Origin: a virus
Taxonomy: Duplodnaviria; Caudoviricetes
Direction: 5' to 3' (one strand)
IMG/VR virus record: IMGVR_UViG_3300010167_001484
Span: 150,047 to 214,046 of that record
DNA length: 64,000 bases
The translations under genes were made by a program, and so were the position numbers. Of this stretch, positions 6,989 through 18,492 are shown piece by piece. The notes under the pieces were generated by a model. It searched no databases. It was not told the DNA's origin and saw only the letters and a program-made list of their open reading frames with translations. Numbering within the stretch: position 1 is the first letter of the stretch; the number at the start of each line of letters is the position of its first letter.

Positions 6989-9900
6989 ATGGCAGATGTC
7001 ATAATGTTACTAACTAATAAAGGTAAAGAGTTGAAAGCTAAACTCGAAACCACTGGAGATAATCCTCCATTACAGTATACTAGAATAGTATCTGCTAGTG
7101 GTCGTTCTAGTGATCCTGTTAATGCTGTTGCACTCACTAATCCAAAATTACCTTTAAGTATAATTGATTCGTATAATGATGGTGTAGATACAATAATAAA
7201 GTGCCTTATAACAAATGCAGGTAATCCTGATTTGGGTATAGGTCCACTTGAAGAAAAGTATGGTATAGCTCAAATAGGTTTCTTCGCTCTTGATCCTGAT
7301 GAAGGTGAGATATTATATAGACTTTGTCAATATGATATGTCTATTCCTGTACCTAGTATATCTGACGGTATATTTAGATATGAACCCGAATTTAGAATAA
7401 CTACTGATAATGCTAATGTTGTTATATTCCCTCCACCTACAGGATTTATATCTTACGGTGATTTATCTAATGCTATGGATGAAGTAATCAGTAATAATCC
7501 GGAGATGGTTGGTAGAGAGGGTCCTAAGGGTGATAAAGGTGACAAGGGTGATCAAGGTCCTAAAGGTGAAGATGGTATTCAAGGTATTGATGGTAAAGAT
7601 GGCATTCAAGGTATTGATGGTAAAGATGGTCCAGCCGGTCCTAAAGGTGATAAAGGTGATAAAGGAGACAAAGGTGATAAGGGCGATAAAGGCGATACGG
7701 GACCTCCTGGTGAGTTAGGGCCTCCCGAAGGTTCTAGTAAGTTCTCTTTAGATTTTATATATCCAATTGGAGCTATATATTCATCTGTAGATCCTACACA
7801 TCCTTCAGAATTATTTGGTGGAGAGTGGATAGAATGGGGGCAAGGTAGAGTACCTGTTAGTGTTTCAACGTCAGGTACATTCAATACAGTTGAAAAAATT
7901 GGTGGTTCTGAAACAGAATCTTTGACAACAGCACAATTAGCACAACATAATCATACATTTGATGGTACATCTGATCAAACTACTAGTTCATCTGGTACTA
8001 ATAATACTAGCAGTACAACTCCAGGAGTAACAGGTGGAGTTAATACAGCTAATACAGGTAATCCTACCTCTAATCCAGCATCAGGTTCAACATCTGGAGT
8101 AACCGACGGAATGAGTGCTAATTCGACTGGTAGTTTTCACTTTAGAACAGTTGCTACAGACAGTCATGGTACAGGTAACTTTGGTATGCTCATTAATCCT
8201 GTAGGTGCATTTGGACCTCATCAATGGATACCTCCTATGGTTACTAGTGGTACTGGATATGGGAATAGTTTAATTGGTATAACTCCTGTAAGATTATCAC
8301 CTACAGGTACTGGAAATATTGGAGGAACACCAGTTCATAGTCATAGGATGGATCTTAATGTATCTCATACTCATAATTTCGGTAGTCATACTCACTCTAT
8401 TAGTAACCATGTACATACACAAGCACATACACATAATAGTGCTGCTCATACTCATACTGGTCCAAGTCATACACATACATTAACTCCTGCTGGTACTATC
8501 GGTAATACCGGTACTGGGATAGATCATAATAATTTACAGCCTTACATTACTTGTTATATGTGGAAACGTACTGGTGGGGTTATGAATGATGTAGCTGTTG
8601 GTGGAGAAGGATTTCAAGGTGAAACAGGTGAACAAGGACCTAAAGGTGATAAAGGTGATCAAGGAATTCAAGGCGAAGAGGGTATACAAGGTCCTAAAGG
8701 TGATAAAGGGGATAAGGGTGATAAGGGAGATCCAGGTATACAAGGACCTCCTGGTGAATTAGGACCTCCGGAAGGTTCTAGTAAATTCTCTCTTGATAAG
8801 ATATATCCTATCGGTGCTATATATTCTTCAGTAGATCCTACATCTCCTGAAACATTATTTGGTGGAGATTGGGTAGAATGGGGTCAAGGTCGTGTTCCAG
8901 TTGGTATAGCAGATTCGGGAACATTTGATACAGTTGAAAAAACAGGTGGAGCTGAAACACATACACATACAATAAGCAACCATATTCATACTATGGCACA
9001 TACACATACATTTGCACATACTCATACAATGGCTCATACTCATACCGGACCTTCACATACACATACTAGTGCAGCTCATACTCATACCGGACCATCTCAT
9101 TCCCATGTTTTAGGTAATTCAAGTTATGCTAAAATTGATATATCCGGAGGAGCTCATAAATATATAGCTAGTAAACTTATAAAAACTCCATCATATACTT
9201 TTGATTTGGCTACTTCTAGTATATCTTCTGCACCAGCTGCAAATATTAGTAATACTGACGGTACAGGGTTAGGTGGTAATACTGATGCAGCGGGTACAGG
9301 TGCAACAGGATCTACAACTCCAGGGGCAACAGGTTCAGCTGGTAATGGAGCTACAGGTGCAGCAAGTGTTGCCGATACAGGTGCAGCTAGTACAACTACT
9401 ACTAGTGATGTAAGTACAGCTAATACAGGTAATTCAACTACTAATCCAGTAAGTGGTTCTGAATCAAATTTACAGCCTTACATTACTTGTTATATGTGGA
9501 AACGTGTAGGCGGAGTGATGAAAGATGTAGATGTTGGTGGAACTGGAAATGTTGATATTCCTGAACTTGTTAATGAAATAAAAGAAACACTTTATTTAGA
9601 GATTCTAGATGAGATTACATCTTCTGTTAAAGCAAGTATATATCCTATAGGTTCAATATATATGTCATCTAGTCCAACTAATCCTTCTGTACAATTTGGA
9701 GGTACTTGGGTAGAATGGGGTCAAGGTAAAGTACCAATAGGTGTTGCAGATTCTGGTATATTCGATACGGTTGAAGTAACTGGTGGAGCTGAAACTCACA
9801 CACATACAATAAGTAACCATGTACATTCACAAGCACATACACATACATTAGCACATACACATGCAGGACCATCTCATACACATACTAGTGCAGCTCATAC

Positions 9901-10303
9901 TCATACTGGACCTAATCATACACATGGTTTAGTTGCAGGTTATGCTCGTCTAGATATTTCTTCAACTAGTGCTAACTTATATGTAGATTTACATGCAACT
10001 AAGTCCTTTAGAGCTACATATGGTGCTACACTTGCCAGTACAGGTTGGGGTGCAAATCGAAATAGTCCTAATGCACTTAATTTAGATGGTACTACAGATG
10101 CGGCAGGTACAGGTGCAACAGGATCTACAACCCCAGGGGCAACAGGTTCAGCAGGTAATGGAGCTACTGGTGGTGCAAGTGTTGAAACTACTAGCGGTGT
10201 AAGTACTGCTAACACAGGTAATCCAACAACTAATCCGGCAAGTGGTTCCGAGTCTACACTTCCTCCTTATATCACATGTTATATGTGGAAGAAGGTTGCA
10301 TAA
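6989..10303 (+). CDS. Long tail fibre: N-terminal anchor, two collagen segments, three gp10-C/collar-like modules with HxH-rich needles
   Basis: LTNKGKELKAK anchor; G-x-y runs (GPKGDKGDKG); three copies of IYPIG(A/S)IY...WGQG(R/K)VP and PYITCYMWK; many HTH/HSH motifs. Confidence 0.85.
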   Translation: MADVIMLLTNKGKELKAKLETTGDNPPLQYTRIVSASGRSSDPVNAVALTNPKLPLSIIDSYNDGVDTIIKCLITNAGNPDLGIGPLEEKYGIAQIGFFALDPDEGEILYRLCQYDMSIPVPSISDGIFRYEPEFRITTDNANVVIFPPPTGFISYGDLSNAMDEVISNNPEMVGREGPKGDKGDKGDQGPKGEDGIQGIDGKDGIQGIDGKDGPAGPKGDKGDKGDKGDKGDKGDTGPPGELGPPEGSSKFSLDFIYPIGAIYSSVDPTHPSELFGGEWIEWGQGRVPVSVSTSGTFNTVEKIGGSETESLTTAQLAQHNHTFDGTSDQTTSSSGTNNTSSTTPGVTGGVNTANTGNPTSNPASGSTSGVTDGMSANSTGSFHFRTVATDSHGTGNFGMLINPVGAFGPHQWIPPMVTSGTGYGNSLIGITPVRLSPTGTGNIGGTPVHSHRMDLNVSHTHNFGSHTHSISNHVHTQAHTHNSAAHTHTGPSHTHTLTPAGTIGNTGTGIDHNNLQPYITCYMWKRTGGVMNDVAVGGEGFQGETGEQGPKGDKGDQGIQGEEGIQGPKGDKGDKGDKGDPGIQGPPGELGPPEGSSKFSLDKIYPIGAIYSSVDPTSPETLFGGDWVEWGQGRVPVGIADSGTFDTVEKTGGAETHTHTISNHIHTMAHTHTFAHTHTMAHTHTGPSHTHTSAAHTHTGPSHSHVLGNSSYAKIDISGGAHKYIASKLIKTPSYTFDLATSSISSAPAANISNTDGTGLGGNTDAAGTGATGSTTPGATGSAGNGATGAASVADTGAASTTTTSDVSTANTGNSTTNPVSGSESNLQPYITCYMWKRVGGVMKDVDVGGTGNVDIPELVNEIKETLYLEILDEITSSVKASIYPIGSIYMSSSPTNPSVQFGGTWVEWGQGKVPIGVADSGIFDTVEVTGGAETHTHTISNHVHSQAHTHTLAHTHAGPSHTHTSAAHTHTGPNHTHGLVAGYARLDISSTSANLYVDLHATKSFRATYGATLASTGWGANRNSPNALNLDGTTDAAGTGATGSTTPGATGSAGNGATGGASVETTSGVSTANTGNPTTNPASGSESTLPPYITCYMWKKVA

Positions 10304-10325: not shown

Positions 10326-10562
10326 ATGAAAAAATTAATAAAAGCTGATAACAATTCTAGAAGTATACCTGCATTTGATGATATTGAACATGATAGTAGT
10401 GGATATATCTATACTAGAGGTGGAGGTATACAGTTTCAACTTGTAGGTAAATTTGTAGGGTTTGATGGTGAACAGTATATAGCTTTAGAAAAGCTAGGAT
10501 ATGGTGATAAAACTTATATATTGTATGATAAGTTTGTTAAACAATATCAAATTTTAGAATAG
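10326..10562 (+). CDS. Small protein with MKKLIKA leader; candidate internal head protein
   Basis: True start is likely the ATG at 10326 after AGGTGG, not 10242; paralog of 5065..5301. Confidence 0.65.
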   Translation: MKKLIKADNNSRSIPAFDDIEHDSSGYIYTRGGGIQFQLVGKFVGFDGEQYIALEKLGYGDKTYILYDKFVKQYQILE

Positions 10563-10575
10563 AGAGGTAAATATT

Positions 10576-10926
10576 GTGGAGATATTATTCACGCCTGCAG
10601 CAGTGTTAGATCTATTAAGTAGAGTAGAAGAATTCAATGATTATCATCTAGGTATAACGGAAACATTAGATGGTCAACTTCAATTACAAGTTGGAGAATC
10701 TTTCTATATAATAGATGATCAAGAAGCTACAAATATTGATGTAACTGATGATGTTGTCGAAACAATTGAAGAAGTTAATCTTGAAGCTTATGAGCAACTT
10801 GCTGATAATGATGTTATAGATCTGCAAGAGCCTGTAGAGTCAGGTATTTTAAGTGGGATGGCTAAAGCACTTGCTATAGGTGGCCTTGTTATGGTCGGTA
10901 GTAAGATGGCTAAGAAGTGGTTATAA
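10576..10926 (+). CDS. Acidic protein with a C-terminal hydrophobic helix; head-module associated
   Basis: GTG start after GAGGT; VES-G motif precedes a hydrophobic/basic tail. Confidence 0.55.
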   Translation: MEILFTPAAVLDLLSRVEEFNDYHLGITETLDGQLQLQVGESFYIIDDQEATNIDVTDDVVETIEEVNLEAYEQLADNDVIDLQEPVESGILSGMAKALAIGGLVMVGSKMAKKWL

Positions 10927-10935
10927 GGAGATATT

Positions 10936-11316
10936 ATGAAAAAATTAGTAAGAGCATTCACAGGTACGAAACAATATGAAGGGTTCAAATTACTTGATCC
11001 TAAAACAAAAGAACTTCATTACTTTCCATATAAATCTGGTAGAAAAAATACAGATGTTGAGAATGAAGCAATAAGTAAATTGAAAGAAGAAACAGGTTAT
11101 GGTGGCTTCATGGTATATGAACTTGTTAAGTCGAGTACAGATGCTAAAGTAACTGCAGCAAGTGGAGAGGATGTTTGTTTCAAAGTAACATTAGAAGTAA
11201 CTATGTCGGGAGAAGTGTTTGATAGATATTCTGATGATAGTGATGATATCCAAGAACAGATAATTCATCTGATAGAAATAGGTCAATTTGAATTTATTGA
11301 TTCAGAATATTGTTAA
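10936..11316 (+). CDS. Protein with MKKLVRA leader; candidate internal head protein
   Basis: AGGAG RBS; internal VKSS and VTAAS motifs. Confidence 0.65.
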   Translation: MKKLVRAFTGTKQYEGFKLLDPKTKELHYFPYKSGRKNTDVENEAISKLKEETGYGGFMVYELVKSSTDAKVTAASGEDVCFKVTLEVTMSGEVFDRYSDDSDDIQEQIIHLIEIGQFEFIDSEYC

Positions 11317-11346: not shown

Positions 11347-12795
11347 ATGGCTGCAAAAGTTAAATCTGCAAATATAACAAATTCAACTATTTTAGGAGTA
11401 TTCGATGGTGAAACAATGGATACAACTATAACTAATCTTAATGGATTGGATATCACTGCGGAAGTTATGGATGCTGTATTTGAGTCAGATGAATACAAAC
11501 AAGGTATAGATAAGGGTTGGTATATTGGTTTCTTAGGTCATCCTGAAGATCCTAATGAAATGGGATTCCAGGATGGTTGTATTGTGATGACTGAAGGTCA
11601 TATGGATGATAGTGGGAAGGTATATGGTAAATTTAATCTCATTGATACTCCTGTTGGTCGTGTTGTCAAGACATTCATAGATGCTGGAGTTAAATTCGGA
11701 ATATCTATTCGTGGTGCAGGAGATATTGAGAATAATTCTGTAGATCCCGAAACATTTGTATTCAGAGGATTTGATTTAGTATCTTTTCCTGCTTATCCTG
11801 ACTCAGTTCCAAAATTTACTGAAATTGCAGCAAGTACTGATGCTAAAGATAGAGCCAAGTATAAGAAAATCTGTGCTTCAATTGCAACCAACCTTCAAGA
11901 TATTAATAGTATTGAAGCTTTAGATATAATTCAAAGTAATTTTGCACCACAATCAAAAGAATTTAAAATGTTAGAAGATAGACGTAAGTCCATTGAAGCA
12001 TCTGATATAATATCTATAAATGACGCAAAGATAACCGGTATGACTGAGTTATATATAGAAGCAGTTGAAGCTAATAAGAATTTATTACTTGAAATTGAAT
12101 CACTCAAAAAACAAGTGTCAAAATACTCAGTTACGGCTAATCAGCGTCTAGCTAAAATTAGACGTATTGTAGGTAATCAACTTTCTGTTGTAACTACTAA
12201 TAGAGATGAGCTAGTTACTGCTAATGAAGAATTGGTTCAAGCTGCGTCTGAGTCTAAGTTGTATCAAAGAGAGTTAGAAAGAAACAATAGATTATTAGAA
12301 CAATCTATTGGAGAATTAGAAGCATATATTAAAGAATTAGAGTTAGATAATAAGAAATTATCTAAGAGAATAGCCTCTTCAGAGAATTCTAACCTTATAT
12401 ATAGTGATAAGATAGAAAGTCACAAAGCCGAAATTAGAAAACAAGCCGATGTTATCGCTAGTCTGAGAGCAGAGCTCGATGAAACTGTCAACGGTGCATC
12501 TGATTTGGAAGACCAGACATCAAACCTTGATGAAAGAAACAAAGACTTAGATTCTAAGATTAAAGCTTCAAATCGCCTTCTTAGAGCATACCAGAATGCT
12601 TATAGCAAATTGTATGCTTCTGCTATAGGTAGTGACTATCATCTTGATTCATTGTCTATAACAGCGTCAACATCTGTACCTGAGCTTCAGAAAATAATTT
12701 CTGCAAGTTCTAATAATCTATCTGGTATTTTCGCAGAACCTGAACAGATTGATCTAGTAGATGGTGACCTAGACAATAATGTTATCATTTTATAA
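11347..12795 (+). CDS. Prohead maturation protease (T4 gp21-like) fused to a coiled-coil scaffold domain
   Basis: GFLGHP, FGISIRGAG and FDLVSFPA match gp21-type catalytic His/Ser/Asp motifs; long heptad-rich C-terminus; immediately upstream of the capsid gene. Confidence 0.9.
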   Translation: MAAKVKSANITNSTILGVFDGETMDTTITNLNGLDITAEVMDAVFESDEYKQGIDKGWYIGFLGHPEDPNEMGFQDGCIVMTEGHMDDSGKVYGKFNLIDTPVGRVVKTFIDAGVKFGISIRGAGDIENNSVDPETFVFRGFDLVSFPAYPDSVPKFTEIAASTDAKDRAKYKKICASIATNLQDINSIEALDIIQSNFAPQSKEFKMLEDRRKSIEASDIISINDAKITGMTELYIEAVEANKNLLLEIESLKKQVSKYSVTANQRLAKIRRIVGNQLSVVTTNRDELVTANEELVQAASESKLYQRELERNNRLLEQSIGELEAYIKELELDNKKLSKRIASSENSNLIYSDKIESHKAEIRKQADVIASLRAELDETVNGASDLEDQTSNLDERNKDLDSKIKASNRLLRAYQNAYSKLYASAIGSDYHLDSLSITASTSVPELQKIISASSNNLSGIFAEPEQIDLVDGDLDNNVIIL

Positions 12796-12821
12796 AATAG
12801 AAGAATAGGAGTGTAAATACA

Positions 12822-14264
12822 ATGGCAATTATAACAAAGCGCAAATCTAAAACTCCTGTGACTGCTGCCCGTAAACCTGTTCAAGCTAGTAATAATATCA
12901 CATCAGGTGTACGTAGTAGATCTAATTCACAGCGAGTTGCTGCTAATTTTGCTAAGTTAGATCCGAATCAGCAAGCTTTTGCTCGTCAACTTCAGGCTAA
13001 CTGCCGCAAACATTCAGCAATAATGGGCGCAACAAATACATCGAATATTGCAGCGCGTCCTGATTTTATTGAACTGCTTCCGTTGTTCGTCCAGAAATTA
13101 CTCATTCTTGATGTATTCGGCTCAGTAGCGATGAAATCACGTCAACAAATTATCCCTTACTTCAAAGTAGTGAGTGAAACAACTAAAGGTGAAACGAATA
13201 AAGGCGATGTTTTCAATACACCGTTTGTTAACCGTCAAGGTTTAGACGGTAACTTCACAGGCCGTGTTGTAAAGAACGAAGTCATGGCTGCAGAAGGTGG
13301 ATTTACATCTGGTGCAGTTAATTATATCCCCGTACTTCCTGGTTCTGTAACAATCAATGCTAACATTAGTGGAGTTACTAATATCTATACAGATGATGGT
13401 GCTGGTACTATCCTTGGTGCTGATGGTTCCGAAGAAGGTACAATTGCATATGATACTGGACTTATCACAATGGGTGATCCTATCGACACAAATGTAGGTG
13501 ATACCGTTAAAGCTACTTACCAGTATGACAATGAGACTGTTGGTCCGGATGTCAATGGAGACTATGGCGCTAGAATGGGTAAAGTCTATCTCCAGTTAGA
13601 TGAATTCAATCTAGTAGCAACTGCCCACGAACTCGCAAGCTATTGGTCAATTTTCTCCGCGTTTGCAGCCCAGAATGAATGGGGTACAAACATCGGTGAT
13701 ATGGCTAAAGAAGCAGCTTTCTCCGAATTGACAGCTGAGATCAATACAAAAGGTTTCAAAGCTCTTGAAAAAGCAGCGACCTATAAACCTCAGTACAACT
13801 GGGATGCTTCTCCTGTTTTGTCAGGTAGCGTTGTACCGTCAGATTACTTGAACATGTTTAAACTTAAACTCGGTCAAGCGTCAGCTTCTATATATCAGGC
13901 AACAAGACTTACCCGTCCGAACCGACTTACAATGGGTGCTAATGCTGCAGAATATATGAAAATGATCAATGGATTCTCTGCTGATAATATTGACGATACG
14001 GTTGGTCCATATAAGCTTGGTACACTTGATAACTTCGAATGCTATGTTGAGCCTTCGTATGACCCGAACAAGTGGGTAATGTCCTGTAAGAGTACAGACA
14101 TTCGCAGGAATAGCGGATTGTTTGGGGAGTATATGCCCTTCACAGCTACTGATGCAATCGGCCTTGCGAACGCTAGTGTGCAGCAAGGATATGCTACGAT
14201 GTATTGCATGGAAGTGGTCAACCCGGCAACAATCGTTTCTGGAAAGATTGTTGGAGTATTCTAA
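12822..14264 (+). CDS. Major capsid protein (T4 gp23-like, HK97 fold) with a basic N-terminal propeptide
   Basis: Follows the protease; ELTAEIN and GEYMP motifs and an insertion domain (VLPGSVTI...GTIAYDTG) as in large T4-like myoviruses; visibly more GC-rich codons, consistent with high expression. Confidence 0.88.
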   Translation: MAIITKRKSKTPVTAARKPVQASNNITSGVRSRSNSQRVAANFAKLDPNQQAFARQLQANCRKHSAIMGATNTSNIAARPDFIELLPLFVQKLLILDVFGSVAMKSRQQIIPYFKVVSETTKGETNKGDVFNTPFVNRQGLDGNFTGRVVKNEVMAAEGGFTSGAVNYIPVLPGSVTINANISGVTNIYTDDGAGTILGADGSEEGTIAYDTGLITMGDPIDTNVGDTVKATYQYDNETVGPDVNGDYGARMGKVYLQLDEFNLVATAHELASYWSIFSAFAAQNEWGTNIGDMAKEAAFSELTAEINTKGFKALEKAATYKPQYNWDASPVLSGSVVPSDYLNMFKLKLGQASASIYQATRLTRPNRLTMGANAAEYMKMINGFSADNIDDTVGPYKLGTLDNFECYVEPSYDPNKWVMSCKSTDIRRNSGLFGEYMPFTATDAIGLANASVQQGYATMYCMEVVNPATIVSGKIVGVF

Positions 14265-15659: not shown

Positions 15660-15992
15660 ATGGTTATCCAGAAGAAAACAGTTAGACCGATTAAAGCTGA
15701 AACAGAAGTAGCACCGGAAGTTACCGAGCTTCTATTTGAAGCTGAAGATGTAGCACAACTTATCGCTGAGGTAACAGGTGAAGATGTAACAGTTAGCGCA
15801 GAGCCTGATGCTGATGTTATTACATTCGAGGTTGCTGGCGAAGAATTCTCAGTTGAACCTGAAGGTGAAGAAGAAATGCTTGAAGCATCTACTCGTTTCA
15901 AGAAAGGTAAGAAGCCCGTAGCGGCATCAACAAGAAATCGCCGTCCAGCAGCTCCTGCTAGTCGTCCTGTCAAGAAAGTTGGACGTAGATAA
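15660..15992 (+). CDS. Acidic protein with basic tail; candidate core/internal head protein
   Basis: IKA, LEAS and VAAS motifs; Lys/Arg-rich C-terminus similar in character to the capsid propeptide. Confidence 0.6.
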   Translation: MVIQKKTVRPIKAETEVAPEVTELLFEAEDVAQLIAEVTGEDVTVSAEPDADVITFEVAGEEFSVEPEGEEEMLEASTRFKKGKKPVAASTRNRRPAAPASRPVKKVGRR

Positions 15993-16054: not shown

Positions 16055-16079
16055 TGTTAAATATTGTGGAGGTTTGATA

Positions 16080-17441
16080 ATGAAGATACAAGTTAATTCA
16101 TCTGCAGTTGAAGGTAAAGGTGAAATTAGAAACTTCTTTCGTAAATTGGCTGGTATAGTTGATACAGTTTTTAAAACATTAGATGATTGGTCTGTAGAAC
16201 AGCAGAAAGAAACAGATACAGGATGTAAGGTTCGTATTCGTAATACTGATTCTGATGATCTTCTAGATGTTGAATATATAAGAATTGAAGATGGTACACT
16301 TACTATCAAAATAAGAGATGAAGAAGGTAAAGAAACTATAAAGGAAGATGTACCTGACGATAAGGAGAGTGCATCAAATGCTCTTAAAGATATGTTAGAT
16401 AATATTGGTAATATAACTTCTAATACAGAATTGGATATTAATGATAATCCAATAGGTGATGATGACGTTGTCGAAGGTCTTGAAGGTATATTAGAAAAAT
16501 TATCAGGTATGTTGAATACTTTCTTCGACAGTACAGAAAACATTGAAGAAATTGATCATAAAGATATAACTAACGGTATTAAATATAGAGCTCAGCATAA
16601 TGATATATATGCAGATATTTCTATAACAAGTGAAGATGCTGGGGAATTGTGTAAAATTGAAGTTAAAGCGTCTACAGGTGATATACTTAGTTTAGATAAT
16701 ATTCCTAGAATAAAGGTGCTCAGTACTGTGAAGACTATGCTATGGCAGGTGTTTACAGGTTCTACTTCAGATGTTGATGCTTCTAGAGAGCTTCTAGTTA
16801 CTCTAAAACGTGTTGTAGGTAGTCGAGAAGATAGTATAGAACTTGTTGCAATCAATGCTAATTATTCTATAGAGGCTGCATTAGATACATTGGACGAAGT
16901 ATTAGAAGATGAAGAGATATTAGATCTTATTGATGAAGAACCTTTGAGTCTAGCAATCACTGATTTAGATGAATCCGATATGTTTGATGTAGAACAAATT
17001 GAGAGTGAAGAAGTTACTCAAGATAGTTCTTGTACTATCAATAATATACTTTCTGCTGTTTCAATATTTGCAAATAACATATTAATGATACATTGGAATG
17101 CTAAAGGTGATGATTTTAGTACAATTCATAATTTGACGGATTCCTGGTATTGGTCTGCTAGAAATGATTTAGATACAATAGGTGAATTGTCTGTTGAATT
17201 GTGTGGCTCTGCCCCCAATCCTGCTATGAGTTTAGATGATGTAGCTTTATTACAATCTAATACAGAATATACTATAGATGATGTCTATGTAGTTGTTGCT
17301 GCTCAGATGGATTCACTCATAACTACACTTGAAACATATTATGTTAATTTTGATCATGATGTTCAAAGTACTTTAGATAATATTATCCGTTATTGGAAGA
17401 AAGAGCGAGATTACAAGGTATTTCGTGTACTAAAAGATTAA
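16080..17441 (+). CDS. Acidic multidomain protein with a C-terminal Dps/ferritin-like domain
   Basis: IHWNAKGDDFSTIH...DTIGE resembles the Dps HWN-x-x-G-x-x-F-x-x-x-H...D-x-x-x-E signature; leader variant MKIQVNSS. Confidence 0.65.
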   Translation: MKIQVNSSAVEGKGEIRNFFRKLAGIVDTVFKTLDDWSVEQQKETDTGCKVRIRNTDSDDLLDVEYIRIEDGTLTIKIRDEEGKETIKEDVPDDKESASNALKDMLDNIGNITSNTELDINDNPIGDDDVVEGLEGILEKLSGMLNTFFDSTENIEEIDHKDITNGIKYRAQHNDIYADISITSEDAGELCKIEVKASTGDILSLDNIPRIKVLSTVKTMLWQVFTGSTSDVDASRELLVTLKRVVGSREDSIELVAINANYSIEAALDTLDEVLEDEEILDLIDEEPLSLAITDLDESDMFDVEQIESEEVTQDSSCTINNILSAVSIFANNILMIHWNAKGDDFSTIHNLTDSWYWSARNDLDTIGELSVELCGSAPNPAMSLDDVALLQSNTEYTIDDVYVVVAAQMDSLITTLETYYVNFDHDVQSTLDNIIRYWKKERDYKVFRVLKD

Positions 17442-17896: not shown

Positions 17897-17913
17897 TTTA
17901 AGGAGTGTATAAA

Positions 17914-18492
17914 ATGCCTAGAGGAGTAAGGAATCCTAAACCTGTAGAAGTTGAAGACGTAGTTGAAGAAGCAAAAGTTGAAGATGTGATAGTTGAAGAA
18001 GCAAAAGTTGAAGATGTAATAGTTGAAGAAGCAAAAGTTGAAGATGTAATAGTTGAAGAAGTAGTTAAGGAAGAGATTGAGTCTTTACAAGATGAGGTTG
18101 AAGAAGTTGTTGAAGAAATTGTTGAGGAAGTAGAAGTAGTTGTTGAAGATGTTGTTGAAGATGTAGTCGAAGAAGTTGTTGAACCTGAAGTAGAAGCTGA
18201 AATTATTGAGGTAGAGCCTGAGGTTGTTGAAGTAACACCTGAACCTGAAGTTGTTGAAATAATATCTGAATCTAAGGTTGTTGATGATGAATATAAGATT
18301 GGTCAAGAAATAACATTTAGATTACCCACGATAAGGACCTATGATACAAGTGTTGCTAAGCTACCTAGCCGTAAACCTGGACCCTTATATATTTACGATA
18401 CATTAGTGCAGAACGATCGCATAAGGGTATCTAATAGAGTTAATGGTGAGTATCTTGGATGGGTTTCATTGAATGATTTATCTAAGAATTAG
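17914..18492 (+). CDS. Glu/Val-rich low-complexity protein with a possible C-terminal SH3-like domain
   Basis: VEEAKVEDVI repeats; C-terminal RIRV...YLGWV. Confidence 0.55.
   Translation: MPRGVRNPKPVEVEDVVEEAKVEDVIVEEAKVEDVIVEEAKVEDVIVEEVVKEEIESLQDEVEEVVEEIVEEVEVVVEDVVEDVVEEVVEPEVEAEIIEVEPEVVEVTPEPEVVEIISESKVVDDEYKIGQEITFRLPTIRTYDTSVAKLPSRKPGPLYIYDTLVQNDRIRVSNRVNGEYLGWVSLNDLSKN
17961..18060 (+). repeat. 30-bp coding tandem repeat, ~3.3 copies
   Basis: Unit AGTTGAAGAAGCAAAAGTTGAAGATGTRAT. Confidence 0.85.

Follow-up and report, generated by a model that had tools for sequence, protein, structure and literature searches.

Do all gp21-type head maturation proteases cut after glutamate? T4 gp21 (MEROPS S77) processes gp22, gp23, gp24, gp67, gp68, internal proteins and Alt; the gp21-type proteases studied so far all follow the Glu rule, and this rule is used to predict the mature virion proteins of new phages. 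The question is raised by a pair of head genes in IMG/VR virus record IMGVR_UViG_3300010167_001484, of which we analyzed positions 150,047 to 214,046, a 64,000-nucleotide stretch called the window below. The window is the final part of the 214,046-bp genome of an uncultured jumbo phage with 33% G+C and almost every gene on the same strand. The gene pair comprises:

11347..12795, plus strand: protease-scaffold gene, 482 amino acids (aa) (Pfam Peptidase_S77 and phrog_207 matches, AlphaFold2 model)
12822..14264, plus strand: major capsid protein gene, 480 aa, gp23 family (Pfam Gp23, E-value 8.6e-11, above the cut-off)

The capsid gene begins 27 nucleotides downstream of the protease-scaffold gene, an arrangement kept in 54 related loci. 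An earlier note on this DNA, made from the sequence alone, had proposed that the protease is retuned to small P1 residues with Ile or Val at P3. Five lines of comparison support this proposal: a motif excess found only in the scaffold tail, the propeptide of the capsid protein, and a neighboring core protein; positional retention of the sites in 120 homologues; [LIVM]-x-Glu in the same columns of T4 and relatives; a reciprocal excess of [ILV]-x-E in seven Glu-type scaffolds; and a propeptide nearly free of Glu. On these comparisons we consider it likely that the substrate rule has shifted, hydrophobic-x-Glu↓ having been replaced by [IV(L)]-x-[Ala/Ser/Gly]↓[Ser/Asn/Ala], with the arrow marking the predicted cut.

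We first established what kind of enzyme the gene encodes. The 482-aa protein matches Pfam Peptidase_S77 (PF03420) over residues 20-160 with an E-value of 8.4e-5, and its 22.6 bits miss the curated threshold of 27, while most of its homologues carry a precomputed PF03420 hit. It also matches phrog_207, "head maturation protease" (E-value 3.5e-20), and is a divergent S77 member rather than a non-member. Searching PDB sequences with a profile of the full-length protein returned coiled coils only, and the protease domain as a single sequence gave no match; the link to gp21 was obtained only from the predicted fold. An AlphaFold2 (AF2) model of the 482-aa protein, built on 36 homologues, has a confident domain at residues 13-160, a short low-confidence linker, and then long helices at 225-378 and 394-427. 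The top Foldseek match of this model is T4 gp21 (5JBL; E-value 6e-6, probability 1.00), and VIA-align superimposes model residues 15-151 on gp21 residues 37-173 with a Z of 14.9 and a root-mean-square deviation (rmsd) of 2.0 Å over 129 residues. The proteases of varicella-zoster virus, pseudorabies virus (PrV), human cytomegalovirus, Epstein-Barr virus, and herpes simplex virus, along with that of Kaposi's sarcoma-associated herpesvirus, align at Z 8-10 and about 3 Å rmsd over about 120 residues, clearly below the gp21 match. The domain and its predicted catalytic residues are:

11383..11826, plus strand: protease domain, residues about 13-160, T4 gp21 fold (AF2 model, Foldseek, VIA-align)
11539..11541, plus strand: catalytic His65 (GHP), invariant in the 36 aligned homologues, aligning with T4 gp21 His85 in NHP
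11704..11706, plus strand: catalytic Ser120 (G-I-S-I-R-G), invariant, aligning with T4 gp21 Ser140 in G-V-S-S-R-G
11773..11775, plus strand: third triad residue Asp143 (G-F-D-L-V), invariant, aligning with the Asp of T4 G-V-D-A-V

The triad motifs H-P, G-x-S-x-R-G, and x-D-x-V align with T4 gp21 and 15 other relatives, and Asp143 is an Asp as in gp21, unlike the second His of herpesvirus proteases. Because the fold match coincides with aligned, invariant triad motifs, the modeled product of 11347..12795 is assigned as a gp21-type enzyme fused to a coiled-coil scaffold, and the gp21-like identity given in the earlier note holds. That note had also set the fusion apart from the separate genes of T4. 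The contrast with T4 is correct, but the fusion is not an unusual trait: it is common among phages with gp23-like capsids, occurring beside the capsid gene in SP-15, LIS04, HSE3, Molly, RHph_TM21B, and QdP_Psa3.

Public metagenomes hold more than 1200 homologues of the protease, all of uncultured origin, and 855 of the capsid protein. The closest cultured relative of the protease is Bacillus phage SP-15 (24% identity over 91% of the protein), and those of the capsid protein are Bacillus phage HSE3, Streptococcus phage GXN1, and Listeria phage LIS04 (24-27% identity). No small-residue-type protease was found among cultured phages by tblastn, and a search for shorter protein homologues returned only truncated members of the clade and no diverse unfused proteases. 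Conservation is given below for the top 120 protease homologues (45-69% identity) and the top 120 capsid homologues (63-84%).

The candidate cut words are concentrated in two places. All seventeen words listed in the earlier note are present where it put them: in the protease-scaffold protein, IAAS 160, ICAS 175, IEAS 216, VEAN 240, VTAN 262 and 290, VQAA 297, IASS 342, IKAS 405, LYAS 422, ITAS 438, and ISAS 451, and in the capsid protein, VTAA 13, VQAS 20, ITSG 26, VAAN 39, LQAN 57, and IMG-ATNTSNIA 67. Condensing them to the pattern [ILV]-x-A-[SN] for counting, we found 11 copies in scaffold tail residues 159-482, versus 1.5 by composition shuffles (0/5000 reach 11), and 3 in capsid residues 1-69, versus 0.31 expected (p=0.0014); none occurs in the protease domain. 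Per 1000 aa, the pattern occurs 2.0 times genome-wide, 34 times in the scaffold tail, and 43 times in the capsid propeptide. The protease-scaffold protein ranks first among 285 open reading frames (ORFs), any other 324-aa window of the 214-kb genome holds at most 5 copies, and of the tail's 14 A-[SN] dipeptides, 11 are preceded by I/L/V at -2. The earlier note had named equal density in head and other proteins, beforehand, as the outcome that would speak against its proposal; because the excess is confined, as judged by shuffles and genome-wide windows, the densities are unequal and concentrated in the tail and propeptide.

A long helix with much I, L, A, S, and N is predicted for the tail, and the excess might be an artefact of composition or of coiled-coil heptads in an Ala/Ser/Ile-rich protein. 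Shuffles that keep the hydrophobic pattern of the tail gave a mean of 1.8 copies and a maximum of 8 in 10,000, so that neither shuffle type reaches the observed count. Moreover, the coiled-coil tails of seven Glu-type scaffolds, named below, carry 0-1 copies, and the capsid propeptide, which is non-helical, has the same excess. We rejected this explanation as highly improbable on the basis of the shuffles, the genome-wide windows, and the Glu-type scaffolds.

Conservation among the homologues marks out the following sites:

11824..11835, plus strand: predicted self-release site I160-A161-A162↓S163 at the protease/scaffold boundary (invariant word, aligned Glu sites)
11836..12792, plus strand: scaffold tail, residues 164-482, carrying another ten [ILV]-x-A-[SN] sites (motif count)
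12610..12621, plus strand: conserved scaffold site L422-Y423-A424↓S425 (120 homologues)
12658..12669, plus strand: conserved site I438-T439-A440↓S441 near the C-terminus (120 homologues)
12822..13028, plus strand: predicted capsid propeptide, residues 1-69, basic and Glu-free (composition, conserved sites)
13020..13031, plus strand: predicted maturation site I67-M68-G69↓A70 (120 homologues, aligned Glu sites)

After the protease domain, 120/120 homologues have [IV]-A-A-S-[TS]-[DN], and I160-A-A-S163 sits in the AF2 model in a linker with a per-residue confidence score (pLDDT) below 50. At residue 424 (consensus L-Y-[AS]↓[NS]), P3 is I/L/V in 107/120, P1 is Ala/Ser/Gly in 120/120, and P1' is N/S/A/T/G in 116/120; at residue 440 (consensus [VI]-T-[AS]↓[ST]), P3 is V/I in 112/120 and P1 is Ala/Ser in 105/120, followed by an invariant Thr. 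In the homologue consensus, the scaffold closes with an acidic C-terminal tail whose final, hydrophobic stretch is conserved. On the model of the herpesvirus M-site, I438-T439-A440↓S441 is predicted to release this last 42-residue segment as a capsid-binding tail. For the capsid propeptide, P1 is A/S/G in 120/120 homologues at residue 22 ([IV]-x-A), and small in 117/120 at residue 28 (I-T-[SA]) and in 111/120 at residue 41 ([VI]-x-A). At the capsid junction, [IV]-[MT]-[GA] is followed by an invariant A-T-N-T-S-N-I: P3 is I/V in 120/120, P1 is Gly in 73, Ala in 46, and Ser in 1, P1'-P3' is A-T-N in 120/120, and conservation jumps exactly at Ala70. Overall, seven conserved sites limit P1 to A/S/G and P3 to I/V/L, and the 54 IMG/VR loci with both genes share both the post-protease site and the capsid-junction site.

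Conservation and excess alone do not prove proteolysis. The [IV]-x-[AGS]-[SN] words might instead be binding or packing contacts, between scaffold and capsid or within the scaffold, with the cuts elsewhere or at few of the words and the register shifted by one; the lack of motif avoidance in the mature capsid protein and in putative cargo, discussed below, would fit such contacts. The scaffold tails of the homologues, however, hold a mean of 5.7 sites versus 1.2 expected, at a steady number but at positions that mostly shift, a behavior typically seen in cleavage sites rather than in fixed contacts. In one related lineage, moreover, Ser plays the same role (L087, below), and the words fill the columns of known T4-type [LI]-x-Glu sites, including the C-terminal site of gp21 and the capsid junction. 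We therefore regard contacts as an unlikely explanation of the words and continue with a changed cleavage rule.

This site-for-site homology with Glu sites is the strongest evidence for a changed rule. In the alignment of protease domains, T4 gp21 E-I-T-E↓S, one of two self-cleavages suggested for gp21 (PMC5694885), occupies the columns of E-I-A-A↓S, and 12 further relatives have [IVLM]-x-E there. We also compared 94 distant capsid representatives (50% clusters) alignable at the junction. In 49 of the 94, Glu stands in the Gly69 column, behind a hydrophobic P3, and 33 further representatives have a Glu word at most 14 residues upstream of the junction; a small residue without a nearby Glu word is found only in this clade (three representatives), in P0243, and in P0269. 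The junction reads IME↓ATNSG in Molly, compared with IMG↓ATNTS here, MTE↓STQ in HSE3, and LLE↓TTQ in LIS04. Reciprocally, the tails of SP-15, LIS04, HSE3, QdP_Psa3, Molly, and RHph_TM21B and T4 gp22 hold 5-12 copies of [ILV]-x-E-[AST] versus 1.8-3.0 expected, for example 12 versus 2.8, and these are the seven scaffolds with 0-1 [ILV]-x-A-[SN].

The distribution of Glu bears on two further explanations. One is that the protease is still Glu-specific and that a host protease or a second phage protease cuts at the small-residue words, for which we found no specific support. In the scaffold tail, [ILV]-x-E is unenriched (7 versus 7.75 expected), and the first [ILV]-x-E of the capsid protein comes only at residue 117, downstream of a propeptide without Glu. 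Across the homologues, Glu makes up 0.4% of the propeptide and 4.9% of the mature part, and because 86/120 propeptides are Glu-free, a Glu-specific enzyme could not process them. The invariant word, moreover, stands directly after the protease domain, where relatives self-cleave, and we saw no second head protease in the head module; a second protease is thus barely credible here. The other explanation is that the capsid protein is unprocessed, its basic N-terminal 69 residues staying in the virion, for example touching DNA, while the protease acts on the scaffold only. The propeptide is indeed strongly basic (Arg+Lys 18%), but it holds four or five conserved motif copies in 69 residues, the last of them at the conservation jump and at the Glu site of relatives, and T4 removes the homologous 65 residues (PMC9958956). 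We judge an unprocessed capsid improbable.

Small residues are also used, mainly as Ser, in two further uncultured lineages, L087/P0243 and the L066 clade. L087 is a 2.8-kb metagenome contig without the protease domain whose capsid protein is 83% identical to that of P0243, itself 34% identical to the capsid protein of the window; a search of viral contigs did not yield P0243. In L087, [ILV]-x-S-[SA] occurs 11 times versus 1.3 expected in the scaffold tail, 4 times versus 0.43 in the propeptide, and not at all in the mature part, and the capsid junction of L087/P0243 is I-Q-S↓A-T-N-T-T. In the L066 clade (capsid identity 31%), the 200-residue protease stands alone rather than fused; it ends in V-Q-L-A-A-S, with L-A-A-S at the position of I-A-A-S163, and the capsid junction reads I-I-P-S↓A-T-Q. 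Its contigs, L066-L075 (IMG/VR, 111-167 kb), carry genes for terminase, portal, the unfused 200-aa protease, and capsid in a row, with no recognizable scaffold gene between these head genes; their 64-residue capsid N-terminus may serve as scaffold. A FastTree phylogeny of mature capsid parts joins the clade of the window with P0243 (support 98) and places P0269/P0263 apart, with weak deep nodes (81), and is compatible with either one or two origins of the small-residue rule.

The alignment of proteases points to one loop:

11440..11454, plus strand: loop N32-G33-L34-D35-I36, candidate specificity determinant (protease alignment)

This loop, after the first strand, reads G/K-R-x-Y in all 16 Glu-type enzymes aligned (T4 Arg55 and Tyr57), a sample drawn from T4, a Vibrio phage, three cyanophage/Pelagibacter phages, Xoo-sp13, Callisto, SCTP-2, CP21, Lak-A1, phiM19, SP-15, LIS04, HSE3, Molly, RHph, and QdP. 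In all 14 small-residue-type enzymes it is G-L-[DT]-[IF] (Leu34 and Ile36 here), invariant within the clade. Because loss of the Arg fits loss of a Glu pocket, the Arg-to-Leu change is a candidate cause of the new specificity. More tentatively, a single loop change (Arg-x-Tyr to Leu-x-Ile/Phe) may have switched the P1 pocket, after which all head substrate sites would have been rewritten, a natural and reversible recoding of protease and substrates. There would perhaps have been two independent switches, one for this clade and P0243 and the other for the L066/P0269 clade, placed apart by the capsid tree; we hold this scenario to be possible but doubtful.

Several observations weigh against the small-residue rule or its details. 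The evidence for it is comparative throughout, and from it we infer both the cutting at these sites and the exact scissile bonds. P1 is Gly at 73/120 capsid junctions and Ala at most other sites, so that one pocket must take both. The mature capsid protein holds 1 [ILV]-x-A-[SN] versus 1.0 expected, and the bodies of the leader-bearing proteins described below hold 7 motif sites versus 5.7 expected; with no avoidance in either, selection against unwanted cuts has left no signature. The protease's N-terminal arm has a loose version of the motif only, in 93/120 homologues, and the lineages behind the Arg-to-Leu candidate are at most two that are independent. Finally, about a third of gp23-like capsid lineages (P0260-P0376) place [LF]-x-E about 8 residues upstream of A-T-Q (L-N-E↓A-F-x-N-S-V-G-T-Q). 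The aligned sequences thus indicate that the maturation point has moved within the gp23-like family, and the mature N-terminus here could lie elsewhere, for example after L-Q-A59. The start at Ala70 given in the earlier note agrees with the conservation jump and with the homologous Glu sites of relatives, its exact position being less certain in view of these upstream sites; we favor Ala70 with moderate confidence.

A further substrate is predicted downstream of the capsid gene:

15660..15992, plus strand: 110-aa acidic core protein, predicted further substrate (three positionally conserved words)

The protein has an acidic core and a basic tail, and its words are I11-K12-A13↓E14 (leader-like), L74-E75-A76↓S77, and V87-A88-A89↓S90. 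Its 22 homologues hold 28 strict motifs versus 4.8 expected, which suggests that it is probably cut as well. It resembles small head-core proteins of the T4 gp67/gp68 kind. Next to it, the 455-aa protein encoded at 16074-17441 gives a match over its C-terminal third to a Dps/ferritin-like "DNA binding protein" (phrog_3636, E-value 1.5e-13; Pfam Ferritin weakly). Apart from the protease and capsid proteins, cut words cluster most densely in the acidic N-terminal part of this protein (V-K-A-S 197, V-D-A-S 234, I-N-A-N 260), and its homologues hold 23 words versus 11.5 expected; its sequence makes it a candidate processed internal head protein.

By analogy with T4 gp21 maturation, we propose the following course. 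Inside the prohead, the enzyme would free itself at I-A-A162↓S163 and cut the scaffold at about ten sites, and the acidic C-terminal tail would be detached at Ala440↓Ser441. The basic 69-residue propeptide would be cut at several words, the last being I-M-G↓A70, and the small acidic core protein (15660-15992) would also be trimmed. The resulting small peptides would then leave, making room for DNA.

The rule may also extend to a leader, M-K-[KR]-L-[IV]-[KR]-[AS], found on 37 ORFs, with I/V/L at position 5 in 37/37 and Ala/Ser at position 7 in 28/37. As the earlier note had pointed out, the end of the leader matches the cut word: its last three residues on the 37 ORFs fit. The note's further suggestion, that the new rule protects acidic cargo through maturation, is a weaker, putative side-claim. 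We found nothing on this leader peptide in the literature. In T4, the capsid targeting sequence comprises about 10 N-terminal residues of IPI-III and 6 of Alt and is removed by gp21. The 37 leader ORFs are like it, as is the conserved [VI]-x-A at residues 11-13 of the 15660-15992 protein; unlike it, the leader seldom occurs close to relatives' head genes (5 leader ORFs in 528 kb), the leader-protein bodies lack motif avoidance, and packaging is putative here.

Other genes around the pair add to this setting. Two small leader ORFs, 10326-10562 and 10936-11316 (MKKLIKADNN... and MKKLVRAFTG...), lie directly upstream of the protease, and the second has no homologue among 62 related head-module loci. 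The 116-aa acidic protein encoded at 10576-10926, also upstream of the protease, is kept in 58 related loci, and cut words are scarcer in its family than expected (6 versus 14), the opposite of the core proteins. At 17905-18492, a 195-aa protein consists mostly of Glu/Val repeats of the V-E-D-V-I-V-E-E-A-K type and has no family match. The 1104-aa protein of 6989-10303, with collagen-like G-x-y runs, three module repeats ending in His-Thr-rich H-T-H-T, and a conserved Y-P-I-G-(A/S)-I-Y, is presumably a tail fibre.

If the small-residue rule is correct, a large uncultured gut-phage clade, with more than 1200 protease homologues, follows another rule with substrate sites rewritten to match. This would be a clear natural case of protease-substrate co-evolution and would make the mature capsid and core proteins of these phages predictable; the one-loop candidate for the switch is testable. 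The new rule would also supply the cut site required by the leader that about 37 of this phage's proteins carry and that may target them to the capsid. We found no literature report of a gp21-type protease cutting after a residue other than Glu.

Among characterized systems, the proteases of T4, phiKZ, 201phi2-1, and SPN3US share a cut after Glu, with more than one cut in a propeptide in many cases, and are self-cleaving (PMC5694885, PMC9026906, PMC10052503); T4 gp21 cleaves itself, degrades gp22, gp67, and gp68, and trims gp23 by 65 residues (PMC9958956, PMC5694885). In the gp21 structure 5JBL, the active site is filled by the N-terminal peptide, which ends in Glu9 (PMC9958956). The enzyme described here shares with gp21 the fold, the His/Ser/Asp residues, the gene order protease-scaffold-capsid, homologous post-protease and capsid-junction sites, many scaffold sites, a hydrophobic P3, and a small P1'. 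It differs in having a predicted P1 of Ala/Ser/Gly rather than Glu, Leu34/Ile36 in place of T4 Arg55/Tyr57, and protease and scaffold in one polypeptide, so that the predicted sites depart from the cleavage after Glu seen in characterized S77 and S80 members. The S80 enzymes phiKZ gp175 and SPN3US gp245, distant gp21 relatives of giant phages, likewise use a three-residue cut word in many head proteins and C-terminal self-cleavage (PMC5694885, PMC10052503), but their word is [S/A/G]-x-Glu, with a small P3 and Glu at P1, the reverse of the hydrophobic P3 and small P1 predicted here. Nearest in architecture are the cultured fusions of Bacillus SP-15/HSE3, Listeria LIS04, Maribacter Molly, Rhizobium RHph_TM21B, and Pseudomonas QdP_Psa3, in which the fused protein also lies beside the capsid gene; their tails and capsid junctions carry [ILV]-x-Glu, without an excess of [ILV]-x-A-[SN].

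In specificity, the closest parallel is the herpesvirus assemblin, pUL26 (MEROPS S21), which appears related in fold and has its protease N-terminal to the fused scaffold. The general assemblin consensus is (V/L/I)-x-A↓S. The herpesvirus protease cuts after Ala with hydrophobic residues at P3-P4, as in PrV YLQA↓T and VQA↓S (PMC4498786). Its two processing points, one releasing the protease and one near the scaffold's C-terminus that frees the capsid-binding tail, have counterparts in the sequence pattern here, the predicted I-A-A↓S163 (invariant) and I-T-A↓S441 (conserved). In contrast, the herpesvirus triad is Ser-His-His and that of the phage enzyme Ser-His-Asp, the sequence and fold here are nearer gp21, and herpesviruses leave the capsid protein uncut, whereas the one here is predicted to be cut. 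We found no in-frame start with a Shine-Dalgarno sequence for a nested scaffold of the UL26.5 type in residues 150-260, the ATGs at 208 and 232 lacking one. Given the Ser-His-Asp triad and the lack of a nested scaffold start, the likeness to pUL26 is functional rather than one of membership. The predicted rule and the fused architecture mirror those of assemblin and are relevant to the ancestry that capsid assembly in phages and herpesviruses shares; if the loop switch is real, it would show how the assemblin Ala↓Ser rule could arise from, or yield, the phage Glu rule.

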